A stretch of DNA of 64,000 bases from Bacilli bacterium (GCA_017447165.1 JAFSOD010000004.1:653903-717902); one strand, 5' to 3'; counted from the stretch's first letter, positions 17,778 to 57,457 are shown. Program-made: numbers and translations. Notes: generated by a model from the sequence alone, not told the origin.

Positions 17778-18121
17778 CCTTCGACCTAGATGATTGCTGA
17801 CTACTAGTTAGTTAGAGGAAAGTCCATGCTCGCACAATCTGTGATGGTTGTAGTGATTACGCTAACGGAAAAAATAACGTTAGGCATGTAGGAGTGCATG
17901 ACGGCGGAAATTAACCTAAAGGGCAACCCATGGTAAAATTCCTGAAAGTGCCACAGTGACGGAGCTTATTTGAAAGAATAAGGTGGAACGCGGTAAACCC
18001 CATAAGCGAGAAACCCAAATTTGGTAGGGGAGACTTGATAGAGAAACGAATCGATTCAAGTAAGATTATTCTTAGATAAATTATCATCCTAGACAAAACA
18101 TGGCTTACAGGGTCGAAGACT
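17778..18121 (+). ncRNA. rnpB: RNase P RNA, Bacillus-type (type B)
   Basis: Contains GAGGAAAGTCCATGCTCGCAC, AGTGCCACAGTGACGGAG, GGTGGAACGCGGTAAACCCCATAAGCGAGAAACCCAAATTTGGTAGGGGA and ACATGGCTTACAG, matching conserved type B rnpB blocks. P1 pairs CTTCGACC (17779-86) with GGTCGAAG (18111-18). Confidence 0.8.
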
Positions 18122-18787: not shown

Positions 18788-19258
18788 ATGGATAGCATTG
18801 GAATTAATAAATTATTTAGAGATAAAGGCAGAACTCTAGGCTCTGTTGAATCTTTTACGGGTGGTTTATTCGCTAAAGAAATTACTTCTGTTAGTGGAGC
18901 GTCACATTTCTTTAAGGGTGCTTTAGTGACTTATGCCACTGAAGAGAAAAATAGATTACTTGGAATTTCTTATAAAGATATTGATGAATTTGGCGTTGTC
19001 TCTAAAGAAGTGGCAGCCCAAATGGCGAGTAATGGTAAGAAACTTCTTAATGTTGATTATTGTGTATCTTTTACTGGTAACGCCGGACCTAGTGCAATGG
19101 AAGGGAAACCAGTAGGAGAAATTCATATTGGCGTTGCCTTTTTAGATACCGCTCAAGTTCATTCTTTTAATTTAGAAGGCTCTAGAGAAGAGATTCAAAA
19201 CAAAGCAATTTATATTGCTTTCGATCTTTTAGAATCATTAATTTTGCAAAATAATTAA
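18788..19258 (+). CDS. cinA: CinA C-terminal-domain protein (PncC-like nicotinamide-nucleotide amidohydrolase)
   Basis: 156 aa. ESFTGGL...TYA...K..LLG CinA_C signature. The N-terminal MoCF-biosynthesis-like domain of full-length CinA is absent. Confidence 0.7.
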   Translation: MDSIGINKLFRDKGRTLGSVESFTGGLFAKEITSVSGASHFFKGALVTYATEEKNRLLGISYKDIDEFGVVSKEVAAQMASNGKKLLNVDYCVSFTGNAGPSAMEGKPVGEIHIGVAFLDTAQVHSFNLEGSREEIQNKAIYIAFDLLESLILQNN

Positions 19259-19261
19259 ATT

Positions 19262-19310
19262 TTTTTCACAAATTTTCGAAAAAAACCGCTCTTTATATAT
19301 ATGAGGAGGC
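19262..19310 (+). promoter_or_regulatory. conserved ~50-nt upstream element (copy 1, before recA)
   Basis: TTTTTCACAAATTTTCGAAAAAAACCGCTCTTTATATATATGAGGAGGC. Near-identical to 28792-28840. Contains a perfect 10-bp palindrome TTTTCGAAAA and ends in the SD. Confidence 0.4.
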
Positions 19311-19318
19311 CATGAAAA

Positions 19319-20305
19319 ATGGACAAAGAAAAACTTAACGAAAAAGAACTCGACGAAGTTCTAAAACAAATTCAAAAACAATTTGGTAAAGGCGCCGTAA
19401 TGAAACTCGGCGAAAGACCAAATGTGGAAGTATCCGTTATTCCAAGTGGATCATTACTTTTAGATGAGGCCCTTGGTGTTGGTGGATATCCAAAAGGTAG
19501 AATCATTGAAATATATGGTCCTGAAAGTAGCGGTAAGACTACTCTAGCTTTGCACGCTATTGCGGAGTGTCAAAAACAAGGTGGTAGAGCTGCCTTTATT
19601 GACGCCGAGCATGCTATTGACCCTGAATACTCAAAGAATTTAGGTGTTAATATTGATGAGCTAATCTTATCTCAACCAGATAGTGGTGAGCAGGCTCTAG
19701 AAATTGCGGAGATGCTTGCTAGTAGTGGAGCAATCGACTTATTAATTGTTGATAGTGTTGCTGCTTTAGTCCCACAAGCTGAACTAGATGGAGAAATGGG
19801 TGATAACTCAGTTGGTATGCAAGCTAGACTTATGTCTAAAGCGATGCGTAAGCTCGCAGGTACATTAAATAAAAATAACTGTACAATTATCTTTATTAAC
19901 CAATTAAGAGAAAAAGTTGGTGTGATGTACGGTAATCCAGAAACAACTTCAGGAGGAAGAGCCTTAAAATTCTATGCATCTATTAGATTAGATATTAGAA
20001 GAACAGAAGCTATTAAAACTGGTAGTGATGTAACTGGTAACACCTGCCGTATTAAAGTGGTGAAGAATAAAGTTGCTCCACCATTTAAACAATGTGAAAT
20101 TGATATTATCTATGGAAAAGGTATTTCTAAAGATAGTGAAATCTTAGACCGCGCTGTTGAATTAGGCCTAATTAAAAAGAGCGGAGCCTGGTTCGAATAT
20201 AATGGTAGCAAGATTGCTCAAGGTAGAGAAACTGCTAAAGAATACATCCATAGTAATGAAGATGTTAAAGAAGAATTATTAAAGGCTATTAAAGAAACTA
20301 AGTAG
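19319..20305 (+). CDS. recA: recombinase RecA
   Basis: 328 aa. Canonical RecA with Walker [11 protein letters not shown]1/L2 loops and C-terminal domain. Confidence 0.95.
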
Positions 20306-20308
20306 TTA

Positions 20309-21907
20309 ATGAAAAAACTAAGACGTTTATTTACTTCTGGATTTCTGTTTACGGCGATATTTCTACTATTAGAAATTTTAATTGTCGTCTTCTTCGAGCT
20401 AGGTCTCGATACATATATCTTTGCCGAGATTATTTCTAGAAGACCAGAAGCATTAAATGTTCTTGTTATCATTAACCGAATCTTTAGTTGGACTAGAATT
20501 GCAGCATTTGCAATAGCAATAATTATCTTCTTTAGAGTTATTAACAAATTTGAAGATCCAGAGTTTAAAATCCCTTGGTTAGTGTTCTTATTCGTTTTCC
20601 CTGTTGCCTCTGTGGTGTTCTTCTTGATTTTTAAGAACCACGGGCTACCAAGAAAAGAAACTAAATACATCAGGGGTTTTTTAAATGAATTAGAGCCATA
20701 TTATGAAAAATACCGTTTAGAGTTTACTAAGTTAGAAGATGAACTTGGTAGGGCTAAAGGGGCGTTTGAATATATTTTAAATACCGCAAGAGTGGGTGCT
20801 TTTAAAAATAATAGAGTTACTTATTATCGAGTGGGAGATGATTTCTTCCCTGATTTAATTGAAGGATTAAAGAAAGCTAAAAAGTTTATCTTTATCGAAT
20901 TCTTTATTATTACTGATGGCAAACTCTGGAGTGAAGTTAAGGATATCCTTATTCAAAAAGCCCAAGAAGGTGTAAAAATTAAAATTGTTTATGATGATTT
21001 AGGAAGCAATGGCACCATTTCCAGTAGAACTCCAAAAAGATTAGCGAAGTACGGCATTAAATGCTGTAAGTTCCATCCACTTAGACCAATCTTATCTGGT
21101 GTTTACAATAACCGTGACCATAGAAAGATAGTGGTCATTGACCATCAAATGGCGTTCACTGGAGGGAACAACCTCGCTGATGAATACGCTAATATCATCA
21201 CCAGATTTGGACCCTGGAAAGATACAATGGTGAAGATTGAAGGAACAGCAATCTCTAATTTAATTACTACCTTTATTGAAAACTTTGATATCGCTAGTAA
21301 AGAAATAACACCTTTGTCACCTTATTTAGATTTCGATTATCCAGTATTTAATGATGAAGGTTTTGTCGCTCCATTTGGGGATGGTCCTGGATTCTACACT
21401 AATGATCACTTAATTGGTGAACAAAATTATATCAACATCATTAATTACGCGACTAAGAAAGTATATATTTCTACTCCATACTTAATTCCTACTTACCGCT
21501 TAATGGAAGCAATGAGAAATGCGGCGTTACGAGGAGTAGATGTGCATTTAATTGTTCCAGGAATTCCAGATAAAAAACTTGTTTATAAAGTTGCAAAATC
21601 ACACTTTAAAGTATTGTTAAAAGCTGGTGTCCATATTTATACATATACTCCTGGATTTAACCATATGAAGACCGCTTTGGCGGACGATGAATTAGGTTTT
21701 GTGGGTACGATTAACTTCGACTTTAGAAGTTTAGTCCATCACTTTGAATGTGGGGCTTTGTTATATAAGAACCCATGCATCAAAGAAATTAGTAATGATT
21801 TTAAAGATATGATTAATAAATCAGAGTTAGTCCCAGTTGATTTCAAACTCGGAATTGTTTCTAGATCTATATGTGGATTAATTAAAATAATTACTCCGCT
21901 ATTATAA
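20309..21907 (+). CDS. cls: cardiolipin synthase (PLD superfamily)
   Basis: 532 aa. Two N-terminal TM helices and two HKD motifs (HRKIVVIDH....GGNN and HMKTALADDELGFVGTINFD). Confidence 0.85.
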   Translation: MKKLRRLFTSGFLFTAIFLLLEILIVVFFELGLDTYIFAEIISRRPEALNVLVIINRIFSWTRIAAFAIAIIIFFRVINKFEDPEFKIPWLVFLFVFPVASVVFFLIFKNHGLPRKETKYIRGFLNELEPYYEKYRLEFTKLEDELGRAKGAFEYILNTARVGAFKNNRVTYYRVGDDFFPDLIEGLKKAKKFIFIEFFIITDGKLWSEVKDILIQKAQEGVKIKIVYDDLGSNGTISSRTPKRLAKYGIKCCKFHPLRPILSGVYNNRDHRKIVVIDHQMAFTGGNNLADEYANIITRFGPWKDTMVKIEGTAISNLITTFIENFDIASKEITPLSPYLDFDYPVFNDEGFVAPFGDGPGFYTNDHLIGEQNYINIINYATKKVYISTPYLIPTYRLMEAMRNAALRGVDVHLIVPGIPDKKLVYKVAKSHFKVLLKAGVHIYTYTPGFNHMKTALADDELGFVGTINFDFRSLVHHFECGALLYKNPCIKEISNDFKDMINKSELVPVDFKLGIVSRSICGLIKIITPLL

Positions 21908-22118
21908 TTTTTATAAATTATTCTTTCCTATAAATAGATAATTCATTTATAATGTTTTCGTACCTGCGGAAGGTACTTACCTATAGATTCTCCAACGAGA
22001 AAAGATTTATCAGGGCTCGCCCTGTTACATAATAAAGATCATACTTATAGCATTATTTTAAGTTGATTTAGGTAAATAGTCTTTTGACTATATATTTATA
22101 TTAGAAAGGATTTATCCC

Positions 22119-23690
22119 ATGCACATTTTAAGTGGATTCACGGAAATTGGTTTACCAATTATCTGTGCTGTTGCTGGTTTACTTGTTGGTGCGGCGATTG
22201 TTTTCTTTGTTCCATTTTTTAAGAATAAAAGAGATCAAAACAAAGCCGGCAAAATTGTTCGTGAAGCAGAAATTAAAGCAGAACATATTGTCAAAAACGC
22301 CCAATTAGACGGTAAACAAGTTGTTAATGAAATGAAGATTGAAGCGGACAAAGAAATCAAAGAAAGAAAGTTGGAATTATCCGCTCAAGAAAAACAATTA
22401 TTCCAACGTGAACAAAACATCGATAGAAGAGACGCTGCTCTTATTCAAAAGGAGAATACTCTTGATGAAAAGAACGAAACTCTTAACCGTCGACTAAAAG
22501 ATGTTGATAAGAAAGAAGCTTCCTTACAAGAGAAGATTGATTCTATTATCGTTGAACTTGAAAAGGTCGCTCAAATGTCAACTCAAGAAGCTAAAGACGA
22601 ACTTTTCAAGAGAGTGGAATCTAAAGTTTCTAGAGAAATTGCTTCTTATATCAAAAACAAAGAAGAAGAAGCTAAAGATCAAGTGGTTGCTAAAGCCCAA
22701 GAAATGCTTGTACAAGCAATGTCTAAATATGCTCAAGAAACCACCATTGAAAAGACTGTCTCTGTTGTTGCCCTTCCTAACGACGAAATGAAAGGAAGAA
22801 TTATTGGTAGAGAAGGTCGTAACATTCGTACTTTAGAAACACTTTTAGGTGTTGATTTAATTATTGATGATACTCCTGAAGTTATTACTGTTTCTTGCTT
22901 TAACCCTGTTAGAAGAGAAATTGCTAGAATGTCTTTAGAGATGCTCATTAAAGACGGCAGAATTCAGCCAGGCAGAATTGAAGAAATTGTTGAGAAATGT
23001 AAACAAGAAGTCGAAGAAAATATCCATAAGACTGGTCAAGATGTGGCCTTTAAACTTGGCTTACCAAGAATTAATAAAGAACTCTTAGATTATGTTGGTC
23101 GATTAAAATATCGTACCTCCTATGGACAAAACGCTTTAGAACACTCTATTGAAGTTGCTTATTTAGCAGGTTCTATGGCTGCTGAACTTGGTTTAGACCA
23201 AAACTTAGCTAAACGCGCTGGCTTACTTCACGATATTGGTAAGGCTATCGACTATGAAACTGATGGTAGCCACGTTGAAGTTGGTGCTAGACTTGCTAAA
23301 AAATACGGGGAAGGCGATGTTGTTATTAATGCGATTGAGTCTCACCATGGAGATGTTCCAGCTAAATATGTGATCTCTCACTTAGTTCAAGCTGCTGATA
23401 CTTTAAGTGCTGCTAGACCAGGCGCTAGAAGTGAAATGCTTGAAAACTATATTCAAAGAATTGAAAAACTCGAAGAGATTTGTAAATCCTATGATAGTGT
23501 CTATCAATCATATGCGATGCAATCTGGTAGAGAATTAAGAGTTATGGTCATTCCTGATAAGATTGATGATATCGGTGCTTTTAAACTCGCAAGAGAAATT
23601 AAAGAACGTATCGAAAATGAAATGACTTATCCAGGACAAATTAAAGTTTCCGTCATTCGTGAATATCGTGCGATTGAAACTGCGAAGTAA
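22119..23690 (+). CDS. rny: ribonuclease Y
   Basis: 523 aa. N-terminal TM, coiled-coil, KH domain (GRIIGREGRNIR), HD domain (HSIEVA...LLHDIGK). rny-ymdB synteny. Confidence 0.9.
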   Translation: MHILSGFTEIGLPIICAVAGLLVGAAIVFFVPFFKNKRDQNKAGKIVREAEIKAEHIVKNAQLDGKQVVNEMKIEADKEIKERKLELSAQEKQLFQREQNIDRRDAALIQKENTLDEKNETLNRRLKDVDKKEASLQEKIDSIIVELEKVAQMSTQEAKDELFKRVESKVSREIASYIKNKEEEAKDQVVAKAQEMLVQAMSKYAQETTIEKTVSVVALPNDEMKGRIIGREGRNIRTLETLLGVDLIIDDTPEVITVSCFNPVRREIARMSLEMLIKDGRIQPGRIEEIVEKCKQEVEENIHKTGQDVAFKLGLPRINKELLDYVGRLKYRTSYGQNALEHSIEVAYLAGSMAAELGLDQNLAKRAGLLHDIGKAIDYETDGSHVEVGARLAKKYGEGDVVINAIESHHGDVPAKYVISHLVQAADTLSAARPGARSEMLENYIQRIEKLEEICKSYDSVYQSYAMQSGRELRVMVIPDKIDDIGAFKLAREIKERIENEMTYPGQIKVSVIREYRAIETAK

Positions 23691-23712
23691 TTACTTCTAG
23701 AAAAGAGTTAAT

Positions 23713-24498
23713 TTGAAAATTTTATTTATTGGTGACATCGTCGGCAAAATTGGCCGACGTGTCATTAAAAGTCACTTACAAACCTTTGTGGATAAATATC
23801 ATATTGATTTCGTTATCGCTAACGGAGAAAATGTGACACATGGTAAAGGATTGTTAGGACATCATTATTTAGAATTAATTGATAGTGGTATTGATGCGAT
23901 TACCTTAGGTAATCACTACGATAGTAAAAACGACTTACGCAAGTATATTGATACCACTGACAGACTAATTAGACCGCTTAATCTACTTCACCCGTATCCA
24001 GGAGAAGGAAGCATCGTCTACGAATTAAACGGCGTCACTATTAGAGTTACTAATGTTCTTGGCTCAGTCTTCATGAACGAAGAAGTGAATAACCCTTATT
24101 ATTCCTTAATTGAATTAATTAATAATAAGGAAAAAGCAGACATCCATATTGTAGACTTCCATGCGGAGGCTACTGGAGAAAAGCTTTGCCTAGCATTTGC
24201 TTTAGACGGCAAGGTCTCAGCAGTACTAGGCACTCACACCCACGTACAAACTAAGGATTATAAAATATTAGAAGGTGGAACAGCCTATATCTCTGATGTC
24301 GGAATGACTGGTTATGCAGATGGCGCGCTAGGTTTTGATCAAAACACTGTGGTTAATAAAATCATATATGGAGAACAATCTCGATTCGATCTTCCTAACG
24401 AAGGCAGAGGCTTATTCTCCGCAGTAGTGCTTGATATTGATGACTTAACTGGTAAATGTAAAGAAATATTCCCAATCTATTATTTAGAAGAGAAATAA
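23713..24498 (+). CDS. ymdB: YmdB-family 2',3'-cyclic-nucleotide phosphodiesterase (calcineurin-like)
   Basis: 261 aa. MKILFIGDIVG...NGEN..HG.G metallophosphoesterase motifs. TTG start. Follows rny as in B. subtilis. Confidence 0.8.
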   Translation: MKILFIGDIVGKIGRRVIKSHLQTFVDKYHIDFVIANGENVTHGKGLLGHHYLELIDSGIDAITLGNHYDSKNDLRKYIDTTDRLIRPLNLLHPYPGEGSIVYELNGVTIRVTNVLGSVFMNEEVNNPYYSLIELINNKEKADIHIVDFHAEATGEKLCLAFALDGKVSAVLGTHTHVQTKDYKILEGGTAYISDVGMTGYADGALGFDQNTVVNKIIYGEQSRFDLPNEGRGLFSAVVLDIDDLTGKCKEIFPIYYLEEK

Positions 24499-24499
24499 G

Positions 24500-25939
24500 A
24501 TGAAAACAAAGATTATTAATTACCCAAATTTAAATGATGCTAAGTCTAGAGTAAAATCTGAGACTGAGTTTTTAGTATATTCTCCTATTCGTCTTGAAGA
24601 GATGAAAGAATTAGGAAAAGGGAAGAAATATTATATTCACACTTTTGGATGTCAGGCTAATATCCGTGATGAGGAGACTATGAGAGGAATGTTAGAGTCT
24701 TCTAACTTTACTCAAACTAGTGAGCCTAGCGAGGCTGACGTCATCATTATTAATACCTGCGCAGTTAGAGAGAACGCTGAAGATAAAGTTTATGGTGATA
24801 TTGGTAATTTAAAGAAGTACCGTAAGATTAATAAAAAACTTGTTTTAGGGATTTGTGGATGCATGGTTGAACAACCAGAAATCTTAGATATTTTAATTAG
24901 CAAATTCCCTGAAGCTAATCTTTATTTTGGCACTCATGAAATTGACCAATTATTAGACTTAATTTACGAAACGTATCATAACGATATTAGGTTAATTGCG
25001 ATTAAGTCTAAACAAGGTGAAGTTGTCGAAAATAAAAACGTATCTAGAAATAATGAATTTAAAGCGTATGTGAACATTATTTACGGCTGTAATAAGTTCT
25101 GTACGTACTGTATTGTTCCGTATACTAGGGGCAAAGAAAGAAGTAGACACTTTGCCGATATCATGGATGAAGTTAGAGAGCTTAAAAAAGCTGGTTATCA
25201 AGAGATTACTTTCTTAGGCCAAAACGTTAATGCGTATGGCAAGGATCTTGATGAAGGTCATGACTTCGCTGATGTACTTGAAGAAGCAGCCAAAATGGGT
25301 ATCCCTAGAATCAGGTTCACAACTTCTCATCCTTGGGATTTCTCCAGCAAAATGATAGAAATTATTGCGAAATACGATAACATCATGAAGTGTATTCACC
25401 TTCCTGTTCAGTCTGGAAGCACAGAAGTTTTACGCCTCATGGGAAGACGATATACAAGAGAACATTATCTTGCTTTAGTTAATGAGATGAGAAATAAGAT
25501 TCCTGGCTTATCTTTATCTACTGATATTATTGTGGGCTTCCCTAATGAAACTGAAGAACAATTTAATGAGACCCTTACCCTTGTTGATGAGGTGAAATAC
25601 GAGTCTGCATTTACTTTCATTTATTCCCCAAGAAGAGGAACACCTGCTGCAAAAATAGAAGACAATGTAAGCTATGCTGATAAAAGCAAAAGATTCAAAG
25701 AGCTTGTTAAGCATTTGGAGGTTAACATTGAAAAAGATTCTAAATCCTATATTGGTGGGGTTTATAAAGTTTTAATTGATGGAGTTAGTAAGACAGATAA
25801 AAATATGCTTTCTGGTTATACTGAATCTAATAAACTTGTCCACTTTAAAGGCGATGAATCTTTAGTTGGAAAAATCGTTAACGTTAAGATATTAGAAAGT
25901 CATACTTATTCATTAATTGGAGAAATAGTGGATGAATGA
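24500..25939 (+). CDS. miaB: tRNA-2-methylthio-N6-dimethylallyladenosine synthase MiaB (radical SAM)
   Basis: 479 aa. UPF0004 N-domain with 3 Cys, radical-SAM CxxxCxxC (CNKFCTYC), TRAM C-terminal domain. Confidence 0.85.
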   Translation: MKTKIINYPNLNDAKSRVKSETEFLVYSPIRLEEMKELGKGKKYYIHTFGCQANIRDEETMRGMLESSNFTQTSEPSEADVIIINTCAVRENAEDKVYGDIGNLKKYRKINKKLVLGICGCMVEQPEILDILISKFPEANLYFGTHEIDQLLDLIYETYHNDIRLIAIKSKQGEVVENKNVSRNNEFKAYVNIIYGCNKFCTYCIVPYTRGKERSRHFADIMDEVRELKKAGYQEITFLGQNVNAYGKDLDEGHDFADVLEEAAKMGIPRIRFTTSHPWDFSSKMIEIIAKYDNIMKCIHLPVQSGSTEVLRLMGRRYTREHYLALVNEMRNKIPGLSLSTDIIVGFPNETEEQFNETLTLVDEVKYESAFTFIYSPRRGTPAAKIEDNVSYADKSKRFKELVKHLEVNIEKDSKSYIGGVYKVLIDGVSKTDKNMLSGYTESNKLVHFKGDESLVGKIVNVKILESHTYSLIGEIVDE

Positions 25940-26213
25940 AACGCTTGAACTCGCCAAAGAGTTAAAAGAAGAAATTCATAAAGATACATTAATTGTAGAA
26001 TATCTAAGGGTGAAAAAGCTTTATGAATCGAATAATGAGATTAATGAGTTAAAGAAAGATATTGCTTTAGCAAAAGCTCATCATAAGGATGAATTACACA
26101 AAGATCTATTAGCCAAATATAATGCTCACCCTTTAGTGGTTAACTACAACTATCTTAAAGAAGAAGTGAGTAACTATTTAATCGAGATCAGTAAAATCGT
26201 AAATAAGAAGTGA
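25932..26213 (+). CDS. YmcA/YlbF-family protein (RicA-like)
   Basis: 93 aa, all-helical with YlbF/YmcA-like heptads. Overlaps the miaB stop by 8 nt. Follows ymcB(miaB) as ymcA does in B. subtilis. Confidence 0.5.
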   Translation: MNETLELAKELKEEIHKDTLIVEYLRVKKLYESNNEINELKKDIALAKAHHKDELHKDLLAKYNAHPLVVNYNYLKEEVSNYLIEISKIVNKK

Positions 26214-26248
26214 TTGATTTCACTTCTTTTTTATTTATAATAATCTCA

Positions 26249-27121
26249 ATGATTTACGTAATAATGGGTCCAACTTGTTCTGGAAAAACTGAACTCGCTA
26301 ATTATCTTTTGGATAAGTTACATTGCGAAGCGATTAATTTTGATGCATTTCAAATTTATAAAGATATGAATATTGGTACCGCAAAGATTGATAAGAGCGA
26401 CCCACACTATTACAAATATCATCTCTTAGATATCAAAAGACCTGACGAAACATTCTCAGTAATGGAGTTTCAAGAGTTATGTCGAAAAGAATTATCTAAT
26501 TTATTGGATAAATATGATGATGTCGTTCTTGTTGGTGGTACTGGCTTATATGTTAGAGCAGCCCTATATGATTATAGCTTTGAAAAAGAAGAAGTTCCTG
26601 TTGATGAGGATTTAGAAAAGTTAACTAATGAAGAACTTCATAAACTTTTAAAAGAATTAGATCTTGAGGAAAGTAAAAAGATCCACGTTAATAATCGTAA
26701 ACGTTTATTAAGAGCCATTTCACTAATCCGCCACTCTAACAAAAAGAAAACTGAAATCTTAAAAGAGCAGGAACATAAGCCAATATATAAAGACATTAGA
26801 TTCATCTACTTATCTCCTGATCGAGAAGAATTATATGACCGCATTGATAAAAGAGTATTATCAATGATGGAAAACGGTCTTATAGATGAAGTAAAATACT
26901 TGCTAGATAACTATAATTTATCTCTTACAGCTAGACAAGGAATTGGTTATAAAGAAGTTATTGATTATCTAGAAAATAAGACAAAATATGCGTGCTGCGT
27001 CGAGTTAATTCAAAAAAGAACGAGAAATTACGCGAAACGACAAGTGACATTTTTCAAGAATCAATTCGATCCAGAAACTTATAAAAATATTGGAGACGCT
27101 AAAAAAGGATTGGGGGTCTAA
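26249..27121 (+). CDS. miaA: tRNA dimethylallyltransferase MiaA
   Basis: P-loop GPTCSGKT near the N-terminus plus MiaA core. Start ambiguous: GTG 26210 (track), ATG 26249 or ATG 26264. Confidence 0.85.
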   Translation: MIYVIMGPTCSGKTELANYLLDKLHCEAINFDAFQIYKDMNIGTAKIDKSDPHYYKYHLLDIKRPDETFSVMEFQELCRKELSNLLDKYDDVVLVGGTGLYVRAALYDYSFEKEEVPVDEDLEKLTNEELHKLLKELDLEESKKIHVNNRKRLLRAISLIRHSNKKKTEILKEQEHKPIYKDIRFIYLSPDREELYDRIDKRVLSMMENGLIDEVKYLLDNYNLSLTARQGIGYKEVIDYLENKTKYACCVELIQKRTRNYAKRQVTFFKNQFDPETYKNIGDAKKGLGV

Positions 27122-27123
27122 TT

Positions 27124-28728
27124 ATGAGAAATATTTATGATGTTGCAAGTGAAGCCGGAATTAAAAAAGACTATGTAATTCCATATGGCTTAGATAAGGC
27201 AAAAATTGATTTAAGAATTAATGAAGAATTAATAGACAAATCTAATGGAAAATTAGTTTTAGTTACAGCGATTACTCCTACTAAAGCTGGAGAAGGTAAA
27301 ACAACTACCTCTATTGCCTTAACTGATGGCTTACATAAGATTGGTGTAAACTCTTTACTTTGTTTAAGAGAACCTTCTTTAGGACCAGTATTTGGTTTAA
27401 AAGGTGGTGCTACAGGTGGAGGACTTGCTAGTGTAATTCCTTCTGAAGATATCAATCTTCACTTTACAGGAGATATGCATGCTTTAACCAGTTCTATAAA
27501 TTTAATCTCTGCGGTTATTGATAACCATATCTTCCAAGGGAACGAATTAAGAATCGATCCTTCTAGAATCTTATGGAAGAGAGCTCTCGATATGAATGAT
27601 CGTGCTTTAAGAAGTGTGACTGTTAATCAAGACGAAAAAAAGAGCGCTCCTCGACATGATGAATTTGTCATTACTGTTGCTAGTGAGATGATGGCTATTC
27701 TCTGTTTATCACGCGATGAGCAAGACTTTATCAACCGTATTAAACAAATAGTGGTAGCCTATGATTTAGATGGAAAACCTGTCAAATTAGAGGCTTTAAG
27801 AATCTCTAATGCTATTTATAAGTTAATGAAAAACGCTTTCAATCCTAATTTAGTTCAAACCTTAGAAGGTAACCCATGTATTATTCATGGTGGGCCATTT
27901 GCGAATATCGCTCATGGATGTAACTCTATAATTGCTACTAAGTTAGCCTTAAAACTCGCCCCTATTGTGGTTACTGAGGCCGGCTTTGGTGCTGATTTAG
28001 GCGCCGAGAAATTCTTAGATATTAAATGTAGAGTTGCCAACATTAAACCGGACGCTGTGGTAATGGTGGCCACTATTAGAGCGCTTAAACTCCATGGAGG
28101 AGTTAAATTTGAAGAATTAGACAACGAAAATATTGAAGCGTTAAGAATTGGATTTGCCAATTTAAAACGTCATATGGAAAACATTGCTAAATATGATGTT
28201 CCTACTGTTATTTGCGTAAACCATTTCTCGAGTGATACCGAAAGAGAAACAGAAGAATTAATTAAGTTCTGTTCTGATAATCATTACGAAGTTGCATTCT
28301 GTGATGCCTTCTCTAGAGGTGGAATGGGTGCTGTTGATTTAGCTAACAAGGTCTTAGAAACCTTAGCGACTAAAGAAAGCTATTATCATCCTTTATATGA
28401 ATTAAATAATTCATTACAAGATAAGATCAATTCAGTCTGCAAAGAAATTTATAGATGTAGAGATGTTATCTATTCTGAAGAAGCGCTTAAACAAATCGCA
28501 GAATTTGAAGCTCAAGGATATAGAAATCTTCCTGTTTGTATCGCTAAGACTCCATTATCATTTACTGATAACGCAAAAATCTTAAATGCTCCTGATGATT
28601 TCGATATTACAATTCGAGAAATTCGCTTATCCGCTGGTGCTGGATTTGTGGTAGCGTTGACTGGTTCGATAATGACTATGCCTGGCTTACCTAAAGTTCC
28701 TGCAGCAGTAAAAATGGAAGATGAATAA
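27124..28728 (+). CDS. fhs: formate--tetrahydrofolate ligase
   Basis: 534 aa. Conserved FTHFS blocks (PTKAGEGKTTT, LCLREPSLGPVFGLKGGA, AITEAGFGADLG). Confidence 0.9.
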   Translation: MRNIYDVASEAGIKKDYVIPYGLDKAKIDLRINEELIDKSNGKLVLVTAITPTKAGEGKTTTSIALTDGLHKIGVNSLLCLREPSLGPVFGLKGGATGGGLASVIPSEDINLHFTGDMHALTSSINLISAVIDNHIFQGNELRIDPSRILWKRALDMNDRALRSVTVNQDEKKSAPRHDEFVITVASEMMAILCLSRDEQDFINRIKQIVVAYDLDGKPVKLEALRISNAIYKLMKNAFNPNLVQTLEGNPCIIHGGPFANIAHGCNSIIATKLALKLAPIVVTEAGFGADLGAEKFLDIKCRVANIKPDAVVMVATIRALKLHGGVKFEELDNENIEALRIGFANLKRHMENIAKYDVPTVICVNHFSSDTERETEELIKFCSDNHYEVAFCDAFSRGGMGAVDLANKVLETLATKESYYHPLYELNNSLQDKINSVCKEIYRCRDVIYSEEALKQIAEFEAQGYRNLPVCIAKTPLSFTDNAKILNAPDDFDITIREIRLSAGAGFVVALTGSIMTMPGLPKVPAAVKMEDE

Positions 28729-28791
28729 TAATATTTAAATATGCGACCTGCTATGCCGGTCATTTATTTTGTTTAAAAACTTTTTTAAAAA

Positions 28792-28840
28792 TTTTTCACA
28801 AGTTTTCGATTTTTTGCCGTCTTTATATATATAGGAGGGC
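28792..28840 (+). promoter_or_regulatory. conserved ~50-nt upstream element (copy 2, before ABC fusion gene)
   Basis: TTTTTCACAAGTTTTCGATTTTTTGCCGTCTTTATATATATAGGAGGGC. About 42/49 identical to 19262-19310. The A7 run is replaced by T6G. Confidence 0.4.
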
Positions 28841-28845
28841 AATTT

Positions 28846-30939
28846 TTGAAAACTTTAATTATTAAAGGTCTATCTAAATATTTTCCAATTAATAAGAATC
28901 AATCATTTACTGCGCTCAATAACATAAATCTTTCTTTTGATGATATCGGGTTTGTAGCCATTATTGGTAAAAGTGGGAGTGGTAAAACCACACTTTTAAA
29001 CATGATCTCTAGATTTGATAAGCCATCAAAAGGTGAGATTTATTTAAATAAGAAAAAATATACATATAAGAGCAAAACTGATTATGTATTTTATCGTGAT
29101 GACGTAGGATTAGTGGCTCAGCAATATAACCTGGTTCCTGATAGGACTGTGATATATAACGTCTCGTTACCATTGTTAATAAGTGGATGCAGCAAAACCA
29201 AGGCAATTACTAAGGCCACTAAATTATTAGAATATGTTGGTATTCCGATTGAACTATATAGCGAAAATGTTAATAAACTTTCAGGCGGAGAAGCCCAAAG
29301 AGTAGCAATTGCTAGAGCATTAATTCGCAATCCAAAAATTATTTTGTGTGATGAGCCTACTGGCGCTTTAGATTCTATAAACTTAAAGCGAGTTATGTCT
29401 TTATTATCTTCCATCAGCAAAATTAGATTAGTAATCATGGTTTCTCACAACCTACAGTTAGTTAAACAATTTTGTAATAGAATTATAGAAATTTCTGATG
29501 GAAAGATTATTAATGATTACTCTAATCTGAAAATAGAAAGAGAGATAGTTAACTCTAATGAAAAATACAAAGGACACTCAAATTGGATAAGTAGATTCAG
29601 TCTTAAAAACTACAAAAGAAGAATCAAAAGAAATATGTTTGTTGTTGCTTCTTTGTCTATATCCATGATAATCACAAATTTAGTAGTGGGGTTTATAAAC
29701 GGTAAAGATGAGGCGATTAAAAACGCGACATATGAACAACTAGATTTTGGATACGGATCCATTAGTAAAGACGAGATTGTATCTGATACCGGATTCATCA
29801 AATTAACAAAATCAATTAGACCCAATATTAATGATTTAATAAGTGATGCTAAAATTACTAAATTATTTAATATTTGCCCAAACTTTTCGGCAATCTTGCC
29901 ACAAAATATTAAAATTTCAGCAGGCGACAAAGAATTTAATGAACTTTCTTATACTCCAGTTTATAGCTTTGAAGATGGTTATATTGATAACACATTATTA
30001 TCTATTGGAAGATTTCCAAATAAAGATAGTCTTAATGAAGTTATTATAAACAAAAAGTCCTATGATATGATGACTGATTTGTTAAATTATAATCCGCTCA
30101 ACGAGTATCTCCATCTATATCATAAATTTGAATCGGTATATATAAATGAATACGAAGAAGAAATAGTTGATTATTTTGAGTTTGATTGTATTTGTCAAAT
30201 CGTTGGAGTAGTAAATGAGTTAGATTACTTAAATTCTCCAAAAGTGTACTATTCTTATCTTGGCCTTGAGAGTTTTTTACAAGACTATGTTTTGCTAAAT
30301 TTATCAACCTACTATGATAGTAAGATTACTTGGTTTGACAGGGTGATAGATGCTGAAGATTATTCGATTATTTCTTCTTATTCATATCACTTATTTTTAA
30401 AAGATTATCGATATCGTAATCAGTTATTTGATGATTCTATTTTTGGTGATTATTCCTTTAATTCAACTTCTTTGATTATTGCTAATTCCCTAATTGGCTT
30501 TATGAATGCTGCTGAGTATGCTTTATTTTTGTTTTTGGCTATCGGTGTCGTTGGTACTTTATTGATTCTTATGATAATTTCCTTCACTAATTACTCTGAA
30601 GATCGAAAGATAAGCGCGGTTTTGTCTTCACTAGGTGCTAAAAATAGCGATATTGAAAATATTTATATTAATGAAAACCTTTATTCTGGATTTATTTCAT
30701 TATTTATTTCGTTACTTATTTCATATCCTCTATCTTTATTAATTAATCATGTCATTTTCAAATACATAAATGTTAATAATGTTATTTCGATACCATATTT
30801 ATCTTTTTACAACAACCCGCTTTTCTACCCATTATTAATAGTTACATCAATTTGTTTTTTAATTAGTTTAGCGACATTAATTCCGATTAAGTTTTCAAAA
30901 AAGCGTTCTTTAAGTTTGGAGCTAAAAGCCAATGATTGA
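28846..30939 (+). CDS. ABC transporter, fused ATP-binding and FtsX-family permease (MacB-like)
   Basis: 697 aa. N-terminal ABC ATPase (Walker A GKSGSGKTTL, signature LSGGEAQRVAIARA, Walker B ILCDEPT). Then TM1, a ~270-aa extracytoplasmic domain and a C-terminal FtsX 3-TM bundle. TTG start 10 nt after SD. Confidence 0.8.
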   Translation: MKTLIIKGLSKYFPINKNQSFTALNNINLSFDDIGFVAIIGKSGSGKTTLLNMISRFDKPSKGEIYLNKKKYTYKSKTDYVFYRDDVGLVAQQYNLVPDRTVIYNVSLPLLISGCSKTKAITKATKLLEYVGIPIELYSENVNKLSGGEAQRVAIARALIRNPKIILCDEPTGALDSINLKRVMSLLSSISKIRLVIMVSHNLQLVKQFCNRIIEISDGKIINDYSNLKIEREIVNSNEKYKGHSNWISRFSLKNYKRRIKRNMFVVASLSISMIITNLVVGFINGKDEAIKNATYEQLDFGYGSISKDEIVSDTGFIKLTKSIRPNINDLISDAKITKLFNICPNFSAILPQNIKISAGDKEFNELSYTPVYSFEDGYIDNTLLSIGRFPNKDSLNEVIINKKSYDMMTDLLNYNPLNEYLHLYHKFESVYINEYEEEIVDYFEFDCICQIVGVVNELDYLNSPKVYYSYLGLESFLQDYVLLNLSTYYDSKITWFDRVIDAEDYSIISSYSYHLFLKDYRYRNQLFDDSIFGDYSFNSTSLIIANSLIGFMNAAEYALFLFLAIGVVGTLLILMIISFTNYSEDRKISAVLSSLGAKNSDIENIYINENLYSGFISLFISLLISYPLSLLINHVIFKYINVNNVISIPYLSFYNNPLFYPLLIVTSICFLISLATLIPIKFSKKRSLSLELKAND

Positions 30940-31585
30940 GTTAAATAATGTTAGTAAAAAATATAATAATCGCTATGTCTTAAAAGATATTTCTTTAACT
31001 TTCCCACGATATGGACTGGTGATTATTAATGGTCCTTCAGGTTGTGGGAAAACAACTTTATTGAATATCTTAAGTACTTTATTAAATTTTTCAGGCGACA
31101 TTTCTTTTGATGGAAAGTCGTATCAAAATTTAAACGATGACGAAAAGGAACTTATTCGAAGTAGAAAACTAGGCTTTTTGTTCCAAGATTACAAATTATT
31201 TGAAAACGAATCAGTTAAATCAAATATCGAATTAGCGATTGATATAGCGTGCGGAGATAAAAAAACCAAAAAAGAAAAGCGCATTAAAGATTTGTTGCGT
31301 TTAGTTGGTTTATCCAGAAAAGAGAAACAAATAGTTAATAACTTATCTGGTGGGGAAAAACAAAGAGTAGCTTTAGCTAGGGCAATAGCAAACTCACCAC
31401 TTATATTGTTAGCAGACGAACCTACTGGAAATTTAGACGAATATAATACGAAAGTAGTGATGGACCTATTAAATAAAATCAGTTCTTCGGCTTTAGTCAT
31501 AATGGTGTCCCACGATTTAAAGTTAAGTGAAGAATACGCCGACCAAATTATTAGGATGAATGATGGCAAGTATATTCTCCTTTAA
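30932..31585 (+). CDS. ABC transporter ATP-binding protein (stand-alone)
   Basis: 217 aa. Walker A GPSGCGKTTL, LSGGEKQRVALARA, LLADEPT. 8-nt overlap with the preceding gene. Confidence 0.8.
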   Translation: MIELNNVSKKYNNRYVLKDISLTFPRYGLVIINGPSGCGKTTLLNILSTLLNFSGDISFDGKSYQNLNDDEKELIRSRKLGFLFQDYKLFENESVKSNIELAIDIACGDKKTKKEKRIKDLLRLVGLSRKEKQIVNNLSGGEKQRVALARAIANSPLILLADEPTGNLDEYNTKVVMDLLNKISSSALVIMVSHDLKLSEEYADQIIRMNDGKYILL

Positions 31586-32019
31586 AAGATGTCAAAAATA
31601 GTGTCGATGAGATATGTGGATATATCGAGTTAATTTTATTAATTGTTTCAATCTCTAGCATTCTTATTGCTAGCTTAATTTTATTTATTTGTAATTACCT
31701 TCATTTTCTAGAAGTGAAAAAGGACATTGGGTTAGTAAGAATCCTTGGTAGTAAAAAAAGTCAGAGTAAGAAGTTTGTTTATTTTCATTCATTTATAATG
31801 ACCAGCTTCTCGTTGTTAATTTCTGTTTTTGAACTATTAATAATCTCTTTTGTCTTATCAAAATCACTAGCGAATTCACTACACATTAACTCCATGTTTG
31901 TCTTTAACCCGATGTCGATTATTTATATGTTTTTAGTTGATGCTTTAATCGCACTAGTGAGTTCTATTTTGATTTCTAAAAAGATATCAAAAATTCCTCC
32001 ATTAGAGTGTTTATCTTAA
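31564..32019 (+). pseudogene. FtsX-type permease C-terminal fragment (no canonical start; likely remnant)
   Basis: Frame is open from 31564, overlapping the ATPase stop. Encodes ..DEICGYIELILLIVSISSILIASLILFICNYLHFLEVKKDIGLVRILGSKK.. (FtsX TM2 through conserved loop to TM3-TM4). TM1 and the extracytoplasmic domain are absent. No ATG or TTG in frame before GTG 31714, and no SD. Confidence 0.5.
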
Positions 32020-37550: not shown

Positions 37551-37625
37551 TGGCTGGGGTACTTGGGATCGAACCAAGGAATGTCGGAGTCAGAGGCCGA
37601 TGCCTTACCGCTTGGCTATACCCCA
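37551..37625 (-). tRNA. tRNA-Gln (anticodon CUG)
   Basis: Reverse complement TGGGGTATAGCCAAGCGGTAAGGCATCGGCCTCTGACTCCGACATTCCTTGGTTCGATCCCAAGTACCCCAGCCA aligns with bacterial tRNA-Gln. Anticodon loop CUCUGAC. Encoded CCA. Positions 31-39 form a C·U mismatch. Confidence 0.8.
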
Positions 37626-37626
37626 A

Positions 37627-38745
37627 TTATTCTGCGAGTCTAACCTCGACCACTCCAGGAACTTCTTCTTGTAAAATGACTTCCACAAGATCTTTGATGT
37701 CGCTATAAGCGTAGGAGCAGCCCTGGCACGCTCCAATCATTTTGACATAGACAATTCCATCATTAAAGGAAACAAATTCACAGTCTCCTCCATCTTTTCT
37801 TAAGAAGTGTCTAATTTTATCTAAAGTAGAGATAATTAATTTTTCTGTATCATCCATAACCTTGTCATCTTTAATTTCGAGTTTATATCCGTCATAAGCA
37901 TCTTTGGCATTATTTAAGAAATGAGCAGCGACATCTAAGAAATTAAAGCCGTGCTTTTCTCCTTCACCTCTATAGTGCTTAGTGATTGCTACATTATACC
38001 ACTGTAAAGAAATATATATTCTCCATAAATAATATCTTTTTATTTGATCAGTGCTTGGATTATTTAAAAAATAATTATTTAATAATTCTCTACCTTCACT
38101 AACTAAGCCATTACCAAAACAGGCTATATCATAGATTGGGTCATTATTACCCACAAATTCAAAGTCGATGAAATAATATTCATCTTCTGGAGTTTGAATA
38201 ATATTACTTCTTTGTGCGTCATTATGGCAAAGCGCTTTTCTTTGAAGTTCAAGATACTCTTTATGGCTGAATAAGAAATCTCTTAATTCCTTATATAAAG
38301 GAGATACTTCGTTTTGGAAAGATAATGCTTCTTTTTCATAAGTCTCTGTGAATCTTACAAATGGAGCGTAGTCTTGTTTAGAAAGAACTGGAGAGGAGTG
38401 GAGTTCTCTAAATAAAGTAGCGACTTTTTCATAGTTAAATGAACTAACTCTATCTAAAGAATTGCCTTCGATATATTCATTAATCTTAATTCCTTTTTCA
38501 GTATCAAAATAGACATTTTGACTAGTGATACCAATCGCAGAAATGATTTTTTGATGTTCTTTTTCTAAGGGACGATCAACCATCTCATTGGCTTGTTCGG
38601 TGGAAATATATAAAACATATTTCTTATTATCTTTATCTTTAATGATATAGGAAATATTCATCATTCCTCCCACAAGAGGAGAAACAATTTGGGCACCTTT
38701 ACCTAGAACTTTTTCTATCAATGATTGGATTTCATTATTTTCCAT
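37627..38745 (-). CDS. fusion protein: APH/choline-kinase-like phosphotransferase domain + C-terminal Nfu/NifU-like domain
   Basis: 372 aa. N-terminal two-thirds carries Brenner motif LCHNDAQRSNII and D-x-E (YFIDFEFVGNNDPIYDIA) of choline/ethanolamine/aminoglycoside kinases. C-terminal ~75 aa is a textbook Nfu domain (IRHFLRKDGGDCEFVSFNDGIVYVKMIGACQGCSYA). Extended -10 TGCTATAAT ends 8 nt from the ATG, suggesting a leaderless transcript. Confidence 0.75.
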   Translation of the reverse strand: MENNEIQSLIEKVLGKGAQIVSPLVGGMMNISYIIKDKDNKKYVLYISTEQANEMVDRPLEKEHQKIISAIGITSQNVYFDTEKGIKINEYIEGNSLDRVSSFNYEKVATLFRELHSSPVLSKQDYAPFVRFTETYEKEALSFQNEVSPLYKELRDFLFSHKEYLELQRKALCHNDAQRSNIIQTPEDEYYFIDFEFVGNNDPIYDIACFGNGLVSEGRELLNNYFLNNPSTDQIKRYYLWRIYISLQWYNVAITKHYRGEGEKHGFNFLDVAAHFLNNAKDAYDGYKLEIKDDKVMDDTEKLIISTLDKIRHFLRKDGGDCEFVSFNDGIVYVKMIGACQGCSYAYSDIKDLVEVILQEEVPGVVEVRLAE

Positions 38746-43277: not shown

Positions 43278-43367
43278 TGGTGCCCGGGACCGGAATCGAA
43301 CCGGTACGGTTTATACAACCGCAAGATTTTAAGTCTTGTGCGTCTACCTGTTCCGCCACCTGGGCGC
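43278..43367 (-). tRNA. tRNA-Leu (anticodon UAA), long variable arm
   Basis: Reverse complement GCGCCCAGGTGGCGGAACAGGTAGACGCACAAGACTTAAAATCTTG...GGTTCGATTCCGGTCCCGGGCACCA. Anticodon loop CUUAAAA. CCA encoded. Confidence 0.85.
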
Positions 43368-43374
43368 TTAGAAT

Positions 43375-43450
43375 TGGTGACTCGCCGGAGATTCGAACTC
43401 CGGACCCCTTGATTAAAAGTCAAGTGCTCTACCGGCTGAGCTAGCGAGTC
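43375..43450 (-). tRNA. tRNA-Lys (anticodon UUU)
   Basis: Reverse complement GACTCGCTAGCTCAGCCGGTAGAGCACTTGACTTTTAATCAAGGGGTCCGGAGTTCGAATCTCCGGCGAGTCACCA. Confidence 0.9.
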
Positions 43451-43455
43451 AACAT

Positions 43456-43531
43456 TGGCTGGGGTGGGTGGGATCGAACCACCGAGATGACAGAGTCAAA
43501 GTCTGTTGCCTTACCTCTTGGCTACACCCCA
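43456..43531 (-). tRNA. tRNA-Gln (anticodon UUG)
   Basis: Reverse complement TGGGGTGTAGCCAAGAGGTAAGGCAACAGACTTTGACTCTGTCATCTCGGTGGTTCGATCCCACCCACCCCAGCCA. Confidence 0.9.
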
Positions 43532-43536
43532 ACTTG

Positions 43537-43620
43537 TGGTGGAGGGGGGCAGATTCGAACCGCCGAACCCGAAGGAGCTGATTTACAGTCAGCCGCGTTT
43601 AGCCTCTTCGCTACCCCTCC
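43537..43620 (-). tRNA. tRNA-Tyr (anticodon GUA)
   Basis: Reverse complement GGAGGGGTAGCGAAGAGGCTAAACGCGGCTGACTGTAAATCAGCTCCTTCGGGTTCGGCGGTTCGAATCTGCCCCCCTCCACCA. Long variable arm. Confidence 0.9.
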
Positions 43621-43644
43621 GTGTATGGTATAGCTTCGCGTTAA

Positions 43645-43720
43645 TGGTGGATGCTGAGGGGCTCGAACCCCCGACCTCCGCCGTGTAAAGGCGATGCTCT
43701 CCCAGCTGAGCTAAGCATCC
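43645..43720 (-). tRNA. tRNA-Val (anticodon UAC)
   Basis: Reverse complement GGATGCTTAGCTCAGCTGGGAGAGCATCGCCTTTACACGGCGGAGGTCGGGGGTTCGAGCCCCTCAGCATCCACCA. Confidence 0.9.
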
Positions 43721-51181: not shown

Positions 51182-51380
51182 ATAGACCTCCTGTTTCTGG
51201 GGAAAATGAAAATAGAGACGATTTACTCTCAATCCTCCATCCTCATTTATTCCCTTCGAACCCAAAGGTCTCTATATCTTTTCCTCGATTATATTATAGC
51301 ATTTAATGCTATAAATGTATATCAGTATTTAATAAAAGTGCAAAAAAATACAGTACACAATTGTGTACTGTAATATACAA

Positions 51381-51465
51381 TGGTGCGCGGGATGAGAATC
51401 GAACTCACACATCTTGCGATATACGCCCCTCAAACGTACGCGTCTACCAGTTCCGCCACCTGCGC
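51381..51465 (-). tRNA. tRNA-Leu (anticodon GAG), long variable arm
   Basis: Reverse complement GCGCAGGTGGCGGAACTGGTAGACGCGTACGTTTGAGGGGCGTATATCGCAAGATGTGTGAGTTCGATTCTCATCCCGCGCACCA. Anticodon loop UUGAGGG. CCA encoded. Confidence 0.8.
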
Positions 51466-56032: not shown

Positions 56033-56241
56033 AAGGCATCCCCTCCTAAAAATATTTACTTAAATAGAATAATATTTATTTTGCTATCTAGCAATAATAA
56101 GTCATCAATTTCAAATAATTGATAAAACTTTTATGTAGTTTTATATAACTTGTGTATAATATTAGCAGTCTCGATATATTAGAAGTTAATTGTCCGTAGG
56201 TGAAGTTATACTTCCCTAATGTATTGAAGGAGGCTAGTATC

Positions 56242-57084: not shown

Positions 57085-57109
57085 TTCTTTATTTGGAGAA
57101 TAAAAATAT

Positions 57110-57457
57110 ATGAAGAAGAAACTAAAACAACTATCTATTTTTGAAATAATTGCCTACTGTATCTTATTACTCTTAGGCTTATGGGGATTAATCTATACTT
57201 TATTAGGCTTTATTTGTGAATTCTTAAGCATCAATTCTGGACTAAGATACGCAAATAATTACATTAAAAATGTATTTGGAACTGGCTTCCTCACCTGTGG
57301 CTTAATTGTGTTAGGTGTTTCCGTAGTCGCTGCTGTTGTTGTCTTATTAATCAACGCTAAGAAAAGTGATCGTGACTTTGAAAAAGCACAAAGAAGATCG
57401 GCAAGACTTAAGAAAAAACCAGAAGTTGTTGATGCTGAATCTTCTCCAGTTGAATAA
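57110..57457 (+). CDS. small 2-TM membrane protein with basic C-terminal tail
   Basis: 115 aa. Two hydrophobic helices, C-terminal KKSDRDFEKAQRRSARLKKKPE. Lies 26 nt after the previous gene and is followed by a strong terminator. Confidence 0.55.
   Translation: MKKKLKQLSIFEIIAYCILLLLGLWGLIYTLLGFICEFLSINSGLRYANNYIKNVFGTGFLTCGLIVLGVSVVAAVVVLLINAKKSDRDFEKAQRRSARLKKKPEVVDAESSPVE

Follow-up and report, generated by a model that had tools for sequence, protein, structure and literature searches.

A conserved promoter-like element before recA, dprA, radC, and ABC exporter genes in uncultured Bacilli

Introduction

In Mycoplasma genitalium, sigma-20 promoters (TTGTCA-N18/19-ATTWAT) lie before recA and ruvAB, near the ATG (PMC4446450), and a second form of the consensus for the sigma-20 (MG428) regulon of M. 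genitalium and M. pneumoniae reads TTGGCR-N18/19-ATTYAT (PMC4446450). In streptococci, SigX boxes stand before dprA, cinA-recA, and radC, 17-25 nt from the ATG (PMC6001120); the cin-box, or SigX-box, is TACGAATA and in its extended form TTNCGAATAA (PMC9300618), and a T-rich tract lies at -25. The sigma-H competence promoters of Listeria, Bacillus, and Staphylococcus follow the consensus RMAGGRWWW-N11-12-RRMGAAW, and those of Listeria comG and comE are 19-22 nt from the start codon (PMC4754846). Promoters of the clostridial TcdR-group (group 5) sigma factors have TTTACA at -35 and GTTATA at -10 (PMC4031146). Here, we compare with these systems an element of about 50 nt that occurs twice in a 64,000-nt stretch of DNA from a Bacilli bacterium (GCA_017447165.1 JAFSOD010000004.1:653903-717902; hereafter, the window, meaning the whole stretch analyzed), once before recA (copy 1, 19262-19310) and once before a gene for a MacB-like ATP-binding cassette (ABC) exporter (copy 2, 28792-28840).

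Our search of the literature on competence and recombination regulators of Erysipelotrichaceae-like or related uncultured Bacilli returned nothing relevant. We conclude with high confidence that the element is a real, conserved, low-copy regulatory promoter element shared by several genes. In addition, we consider it probable, in both mechanism and register, that it is an alternative-sigma promoter specific to this lineage, through which a competence/recombination regulon would be expressed.

Two copies of the element in the window

Both copies read letter for letter as quoted in an initial annotation of the window. Its estimate of ~85% identity proved too high, as an ungapped comparison gives 35 of 49 positions (71%). 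The likeness lies in two blocks, TTTTTCACAA.TTTTCGA (17/18 positions) and TCTTTATATATAT (13/13), with a divergent segment between them in which, as had been noted, the A7 run of the recA copy is replaced by T6G. The 16-mer TTTCACAARTTTTCGA has exact matches in the window at the two copies only (three more matches carry 2-3 mismatches each), and the second block is matched twice at ≤3 mismatches versus 0.15 times expected; given these counts, the similarity is far beyond chance. Repeat, regular-expression, and nhmmer profile searches of the window found no third copy, and regular-expression and profile searches of all the loci fetched for this study (see below) found none beyond those reported. 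The two copies are on the same strand, 9.5 kb apart, and both run into the ribosome-binding site (RBS) of the downstream gene.

Copy 1 sits in the 60-nt gap between cinA and recA, and the cinA stop codon (TAA, 19256-19258) falls within its T/A-rich upstream tract:

18788..19258, + strand: cinA (156 aa, PncC-domain; Pfam CinA, NCBIfam PncC_domain), the gene 5' of copy 1
19246..19264, + strand: T/A-rich upstream tract (…AATAATTAAATTTTT), UP-element-like; a T-run precedes the hexamer in nearly all copies
19265..19270, + strand: -35-like hexamer TTCACA, in the same column in 17/18 aligned copies
19271..19287, + strand: A/T-rich 17-bp spacer AATTTTCGAAAAAAACC, holding the TTTTCGA box, the palindrome TTTTCGAAAA, and the A7 tract
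19288..19293, + strand: hexamer GCTCTT (consensus nCTCTK), the proposed -10 region, complementary to the RBS; CTCT is the top-conserved block of the alignment
19294..19302, + strand: AT-rich TATATATAT, the proposed melting/start region
19303..19309, + strand: RBS GAGGAGG, 9 nt 5' of the recA ATG
19319..20305, + strand: recA (328 aa, ATG at 19319; Pfam RecA_N/RecA_C)

Copy 2 sits between fhs, which ends at 28728, and the gene for the 697-aa ABC protein:

28743..28771, + strand: terminator-like hairpin of fhs with T-tract (GCGACCTGC-TAT-GCCGGTC-ATTTATTTTG); one stem mismatch, perfect in relatives
28770..28794, + strand: T/A-rich upstream tract (…AAAAACTTTTTTAAAAATTT)
28795..28800, + strand: -35-like hexamer TTCACA
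28801..28817, + strand: 17-bp spacer AGTTTTCGATTTTTTGC, with a T6 tract where copy 1 has A7
28818..28823, + strand: hexamer CGTCTT, the proposed -10 region
28824..28832, + strand: AT-rich TATATATAT
28833..28839, + strand: RBS AGGAGGG, 6 nt 5' of the TTG start
28846..30939, + strand: fusion of an ABC ATPase and an FtsX-type permease (697 aa, MacB-like architecture, TTG start)
30932..31585, + strand: second ABC ATPase of the same operon (217 aa), truncated relative to 930-aa orthologues in relatives

The top NCBIfam resemblance of the 697-aa protein is to a bacteriocin-export ABC family, under the cut-off of that family. Where relatives have one 930-aa ATPase-FtsX fusion, the window encodes two separate products, the 217-aa ATPase and, after it, a 101-aa C-terminal piece of FtsX (31714-32019). 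This split second ABC gene (30932-32019) looks, from its sequence, like an internal deletion or a pseudogene in the window species.

Conservation across related Bacilli

Metagenome assemblies and metagenome-assembled genomes (MAGs) labeled "Bacilli bacterium" are the only sources of proteins identical to those of the window. The closest named genomes are the rumen MAGs "uncultured Erysipelotrichaceae bacterium RUG14566/RUG11432" and "Bacillales (now Caryophanales) bacterium UBA3835". We scanned one genome per species with the pattern TTCACAANTTTTCGA-N8-18-TTATATA and obtained 12 matches, 4 of which share long similarity beyond the positions that the pattern demanded; a scan of metagenomes gave 25 matches, with only L032, L037, and L048 being real. 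Further loci were fetched through protein homologues (recA, dprA, and ABC). The copies outside the window are as follows:

L016, RUG14566: element before dprA (Pfam/NCBIfam DprA)
L021, UBA3835: element before dprA (Pfam/NCBIfam DprA)
L020, RUG14566: element before the gene of a 60-aa membrane peptide, then radC (Pfam/NCBIfam RadC)
L015, RUG11432: element before the gene of an ORF6N-domain protein (304 aa; Pfam/NCBIfam ORF6N)
L037, metagenome: orthologous dprA copy
L048, metagenome: ORF6N copy
L032, metagenome: element, then a ~150-nt leader and the gene of a 25-aa hydrophobic peptide
L065-67, same metagenome samples as the window: near-identical copy at the dprA locus
L050-L053 and L073, recA orthologues (91-98% protein identity): element diverged, recognizable
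L070-L072, ABC orthologues (55-78% identity): element diverged, recognizable
L068 and L069, dprA orthologues (54-58% identity): element diverged, recognizable

The initial annotation had taken the two window copies for a shared cis-element, and this is supported, since several related species keep the element at the corresponding places before their recA and ABC orthologues, and it also occurs before dprA and radC. More specifically, UBA3835, a single public genome, carries it before recA (L073), dprA (L021), and the ABC operon (L070), and RUG14566 carries it before dprA and the radC unit. DprA of L065-67 and the ABC protein of the window are each 78% identical to their UBA3835 counterparts; given these equal identities and the shared samples, L065-67 probably belong to the species of the window, which would then have the element before recA, the ABC gene, and dprA (three copies in ~85 kb). 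Thus, the genes that the element precedes are dprA, the radC unit, recA, the ABC exporter genes, peptide genes, and ORF6N genes, and the comparative sequence data support the suggested co-regulation of recA with a MacB-like exporter. Scattering without positional bias, which would have marked a simple repeat, was not seen: all 18 copies examined are intergenic and oriented with the downstream gene.

Other matches to the search patterns were set aside. A relaxed-pattern scan of viral contigs gave 10 matches, all by chance. On the metagenome contigs L026, L027, L041, L042, and L044, the pattern was matched by a recurrent sequence, AAAAGTTGTAAAATCACAACTTTTCGAAAAAAAA, with the palindrome AAGTTGT…ACAACTT; since it lacks the CTCT block and does not adjoin the start of a gene, it is probably unrelated and from another organism.

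Two of the copies are followed by longer leaders. At L020 (6488-6747), an 11-bp hairpin (GAGAGGGGTAG…CTACCCCTCTC) precedes the 60-aa peptide gene and radC; it begins 2-3 nt past TATATA, a position that would suit a 5'-terminal stabilizing stem. At L032 (283-506), the ~150-nt leader and the 25-aa peptide (MRDIILILFEMIIILVLIRKDPTKR) are followed by a terminator, and the L020 and L032 leaders are alike over their first ~25 nt. The window itself encodes a 431-aa ORF6N-type protein (49970-51265, - strand), the C-terminal half of which is homologous to the 304-aa RUG11432 protein; its gene has an ordinary TGcTATAAT promoter, and the element is absent there.

Architecture of the element

A gap-free alignment of the 18 copies (15 of them distinct) revealed a constant order, from 5' to 3': a T/A-rich tract (often CTTTTTTAAnTTTTT), a TTCACA-like hexamer, 17 nt, nCTCTK, and a TATATA-like stretch. 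A TTCACA-like hexamer (variants TTGCAA, TTGTCA, TTCGCA, TTCACG, and TTTCAA) followed by exactly 17 nt and nCTCTK is found in 17/18 copies, L053 being the only one without the first hexamer. The spacer is A/T-rich with its last two positions G/C-rich, and the register of the TATATA-like stretch relative to CTCT shifts by 0-2 nt. In 14/18 copies, the RBS lies 2-3 nt past the TATATA-like stretch, and 25-29 nt separate CTCT from the start codon. Information content is highest at the T-run, TT..CA, and CTCT; the spacer is variable.

The initial annotation had stressed a perfect palindrome, TTTTCGAAAA, in the recA copy. It is present at 19273-19282 and turns out to be no conserved core, as it is missing from the recA and ABC copies of UBA3835 and from farther orthologues. 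Indeed, the TTTTCGA box is invariant in the core clade only; it is replaced by TTTTTGA in UBA3835 recA (L073), TTTTCAT in UBA3835 ABC (L070), TTTTGTC in L052, TTTTGTA in L069, AAATGGC in L071, and AATACCA in L068. We therefore rejected the box plus palindrome as a core operator, because the box is lost in these orthologues while the flanking hexamers are kept. The A7/T7 tract occurs in either orientation. Given the variability of box and tract, the segment has spacer-like properties, and TTTTCGA may add a clade-specific contact.

A putative alternative-sigma promoter

Ordinary promoters in the window read TTGACn-17-TGnTATAAT. From the architecture, conservation, and positions of the copies, we infer that each would be a complete promoter of ~55 bp: hexamers 17 bp apart, an upstream A/T tract, and an AT-rich downstream region would amount to sigma-70-family promoter geometry, with the first hexamer, which resembles TTGACA, as the -35 element, nCTCTK as an unusual -10 region, and TATATA as an easily melted stretch. 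The housekeeping factor depends on an A and a T that are missing from nCTCTK, and we therefore propose an alternative sigma-70-family factor, one that would be made only under particular conditions. The start site is predicted 6-9 nt past CTCTK, in or just after TATATA and a few bases ahead of the RBS, which would give leaders of ~15-19 nt; such shortness is typical of streptococcal SigX and mycoplasma sigma-20 promoters.

The surroundings of the copies bear on this proposal. Intrinsic terminators of fhs and valS lie directly 5' of the ABC copy and the radC-unit copy, respectively, so the element must supply its own promoter for the ABC operon and the peptide-radC unit. Our terminator scan found none in the cinA-recA gap, which makes basal recA expression by read-through probable; recA would accordingly be served by read-through from pgsA-cinA and by this inducible internal promoter. 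A simple terminator scan of the window did not call the fhs hairpin (28743..28771), the stem of which is GACCTGC…GCCGGTC here versus GACCTGC…GCAGGTC in relatives; given this mismatch, more transcription may run on from fhs into the ABC operon in the window species.

From the gene set, we infer the link to competence: by analogy with described regulons, recA, dprA, and radC together are a late-competence-regulon signature and not a typical LexA set. The two small hydrophobic peptide genes, the MacB-like exporter pair, and the ORF6N gene are compatible, as a matter of speculation, with competence-linked peptide, bacteriocin, or immunity functions; if the regulon is real, its pairing of an ABC exporter with such peptides would make the peptide and bacteriocin functions candidates.

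Several points weigh against the proposed promoter. No gene for a sigma factor or other regulator was seen among the annotated or read open reading frames of the window or in the 20-kb dprA locus L065. The comEA/EC, comG, comF, ssbB, and coiA genes were not seen with the element among the strict-pattern loci, so that the term competence derives from recA, dprA, and radC only. The nCTCTK hexamer equals no characterized -10 element. Eight core-clade copies, non-orthologous or from different species, share the 15-nt sequence TTCACAAnTTTTCGA without a single change, a perfect conservation that exceeds the needs of a plain spacer; an extra protein contact at this sequence is possible. Finally, if pairing of CTCT with the RBS matters in the RNA, transcription would start upstream of CTCT, which would favor a different register with TTTTCGAAAA as a ComX-like -10 element.

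A bolder version, which we regard as unlikely, would make the element the promoter of an undescribed sigma factor, perhaps related to MG428/sigma-20 or to ComX, that serves a transformation/recombination program in abundant uncultured rumen and gut Bacilli; its -10 block (CTCT and the C-rich flank) would double as an anti-RBS that silences read-through transcripts, so that only transcripts started at the promoter are translated.

If the proposed promoter is real, it would define, for widespread uncultured ruminant-gut Bacilli, a regulon that serves DNA uptake and recombination, together with its promoter code. These organisms would be predicted to be naturally transformable, which would be useful for their cultivation and genetics, and the motif could be used to find the remaining regulon members and the regulator in complete MAGs. 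It would also be a possible evolutionary bridge from the mycoplasma sigma-20 recombination regulon to the competence regulons of other Firmicutes.

Comparison with described promoters and operators

In function, as far as analogy allows, the element is most like the sigma-20 promoters of M. genitalium and the ComX promoters of streptococci; since it matches the sequence definition of neither, we place it in neither family. It shares with sigma-20 promoters a two-block, sigma-70-type layout with a non-canonical T-rich second block, a -35 hexamer near TTGACA (the L052 copy has exactly TTGTCA), a position directly before recA and recombination genes and near the start codon, a low number of copies per genome, and a low-GC host within Bacilli/Mollicutes. 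Set against the sigma-20 hexamer TTGTCA, the hexamers TTCACA, TTGTCA, TTGCAA, and TTCGCA are 0-2 bases away. Unlike sigma-20 promoters, it has nCTCTK and then TATATA instead of ATTWAT, and a 17-nt spacer. At N18/19, where ATTWAT would stand, CTCTTT or TCTTTA is found, and the nearest string, CTTTAT, is at N20. In addition, dprA and radC are members here and are not reported in the M. genitalium regulon.

The likeness to ComX/SigX promoters lies in the regulon overlap (dprA, recA, and radC out of the late competence genes dprA, cinA-recA, radC, ssbB, comG, comE, comF, and coiA, with peptide/bacteriocin and transporter genes as plausible extras), the very short leaders, and the upstream T-run. 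The extended box TTNCGAATAA is matched at 9/10 positions in the A-tract copies and 7/10 in the T-tract copies; the CGAATA core is found in none, and the box is not kept in L052 or L068-L073. The resemblance is thus lost in the T-tract copies and in the orthologous promoters of relatives, and the conserved TTCACA and CTCT have no streptococcal counterpart. Moreover, the element lies between cinA and recA, whereas the streptococcal promoter lies before cinA, and the box-like string stops 33-36 nt short of the start codons, as against the 17-25 nt between cin-box and ATG.

Sigma-H systems are similar in having an alternative sigma factor on com genes and short distances to the start codon. Unlike their promoters, the element has neither an AGGA -35 nor a GAAT -10 at the right spacing, and by inspection no aligned copy contains the AGGA of RMAGGRWWW-N11-12-RRMGAAW. 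The -35 hexamer is one base off that of TcdR promoters (TTCACA versus TTTACA), and the second block is likewise T-rich and non-canonical; differences are that GTTATA occurs in one copy only (L020), 22 nt from the first hexamer, and that the TcdR regulon comprises toxins and bacteriocins, an unrelated content.

As the initial annotation had observed, a consensus scan finds no canonical sigma-A -35/-10 pair over either copy: such a promoter has hexamers 16-18 bp apart and A2/T6 in its -10 element, whereas nCTCTK stands here at 17 bp and TATATA at 21-24 bp. Its statement that no Cheo box precedes recA was likewise borne out, even with ≤2 mismatches; at that threshold, the LexA/SOS Cheo box (CGAAC-N4-GTTCG) has no match in 19100-19320 or 28700-28850, and the window as a whole has 7 matches versus 10.8 expected. 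A LexA-type operator is disfavored, given that the element is not palindromic from copy to copy and has no Cheo box.

Alternative explanations

Among the explanations put forward in the initial annotation, the alternative-sigma or competence-type promoter is the one that we favor; the LexA-type operator and the miniature repeat fared poorly, and a 5'-untranslated-region structure would be secondary at most. Two further readings of the same sequence deserve discussion.

The first, which we consider unlikely, is that TTCACAAnTTTTCGA is the site of a transcription factor (an activator of the competence type or a repressor) lying over the -35 position of a weak housekeeping promoter with TATATA as its -10 element. 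A precedent is the ComK-type activation known for recA and com genes of Bacillus; a TATATA-like hexamer follows CTCT in every copy, and the eight identical copies of TTCACAAnTTTTCGA are what such a site would lead one to expect. The spacing does not fit well, however, because the gap between TTCACA and the TATATA-like hexamer ranges from 21 to 24 nt, in contrast to the constant 17 nt plus 1 of CTCT; a start ~7 nt past TATATA would land in or beyond the RBS, and the TG extension is absent. Neither does the putative site itself hold up across species, as TTTTCGA is changed in the recA and ABC copies of UBA3835 and in distant orthologues, and no dyad symmetry is conserved across the copies. A K-box is also lacking: a search for the type-I pattern of two AAAA-N5-TTTT motifs, at 8-bp spacing only, gave one match at ≤2 mismatches in the window (21574) and none at the elements.

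The second reading, which we find more doubtful still, is a ComX/SigX-type register in which TTTTCGAAAA is a cin-box-like -10 element after a T-rich tract, transcription starts just 5' of nCTCT, and CTCT-TATATA-GAGG forms a 5'-terminal mRNA hairpin that occludes the RBS or stabilizes the transcript. The string TTTCGAAAAA of the A-tract copies, which accounts for the 9/10 match to the extended cin-box, and a T-run ~15-20 nt upstream, as in streptococcal SigX promoters, speak for it, as does a pyrimidine-purine step 5' of CTCT in almost all copies. We rank it below the proposed promoter because the box is not conserved in orthologues (it is lost in L052, L068, L069, L070, L071, and L073, all of which keep TTCACA-N17-CTCT) and because TTCACA is merely 5-6 nt from the box, unlike sigma-70 geometry; the distance of the box from the ATG also differs from that in streptococci.

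The hairpin invoked by this register has some basis in the sequence. The CTCT arm and the C-rich bases preceding it are complementary to the RBS and its flank, as in L068 (ACCTCTC/GAGAGGT), L069 (CGCCTC/GAGGCG), and L072 (GCCCTCT/AGAGGGT). Strong individual hairpins, with perfect or near-perfect stems of 6-7 bp, are predicted for L069, L068, L071, and L072, and one interrupted by mismatches or an internal loop for window copy 2 (w2). When 56 window genes are ordered from the most structured translation-start region downward, the ABC gene comes 3rd and recA 5th. Native arm pairs were not significantly better than chimeras joining the arms of different copies (mean, -7.7 versus -7.3 kcal/mol; permutation p = 0.16), so the complementarity is generic and covariation is not shown. 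RNAalifold gave no consensus structure on the MAFFT alignment, but this result carries no information, as the 5' arm had been displaced by MAFFT. Rfam covariance models returned nothing for the element at the gathering score, only sub-threshold chance hairpins (e.g., mir-4012, 30.8 bits versus a cut-off of 80). If the pairing is functional, it would either silence read-through transcripts or place the transcription start 5' of CTCT.

A miniature repeat or mobile element of the MITE/REP kind, or a chance likeness of two A/T-rich copies on the same strand 9.5 kb apart, without regulatory meaning, is hardly credible and effectively refuted by orthologous conservation: the copies number just two in the 64 kb, lack terminal inverted repeats and target duplications, keep a strict orientation with the gene and distance to the start codon, occupy the same positions in the orthologous loci of species with DprA 54-58% identical, with block-wise conservation, and contain exact blocks with a chance expectation far below 1.

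Other features of the window

The window has a G+C content of 34%, and its gene order is pgsA-cinA-recA-cls-rny-ymdB-miaB-ymcA-miaA-fhs. The RNA genes found are the following:

17782-18112, + strand: RNase P RNA, class B, Firmicutes-type (271 bits)
37554-37625, - strand: single tRNA gene
43281-43720, - strand: cluster of five tRNA genes
51384-51465, - strand: single tRNA gene

Between miaB and miaA, a 93-aa protein of the YlbF/YmcA family is encoded (25932-26213, + strand; Pfam Com_YlbF, slightly under the family cut-off). In Bacillus, this family is tied to the control of competence and biofilm formation via RNase Y.

Two large, very acidic predicted lipoproteins of 394 and 663 aa (54848-56032 and 57742-59733, both - strand) have a lipobox-like N-terminus and no Pfam match. 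Beside them, 56200-57457 encodes two proteins of unknown family, one of 294 aa and a membrane protein of 115 aa. Finally, a choline-kinase/APH-family gene (37627-38745, - strand) has TATAAT just 8 nt 5' of its ATG, a distance that suggests a leaderless mRNA.

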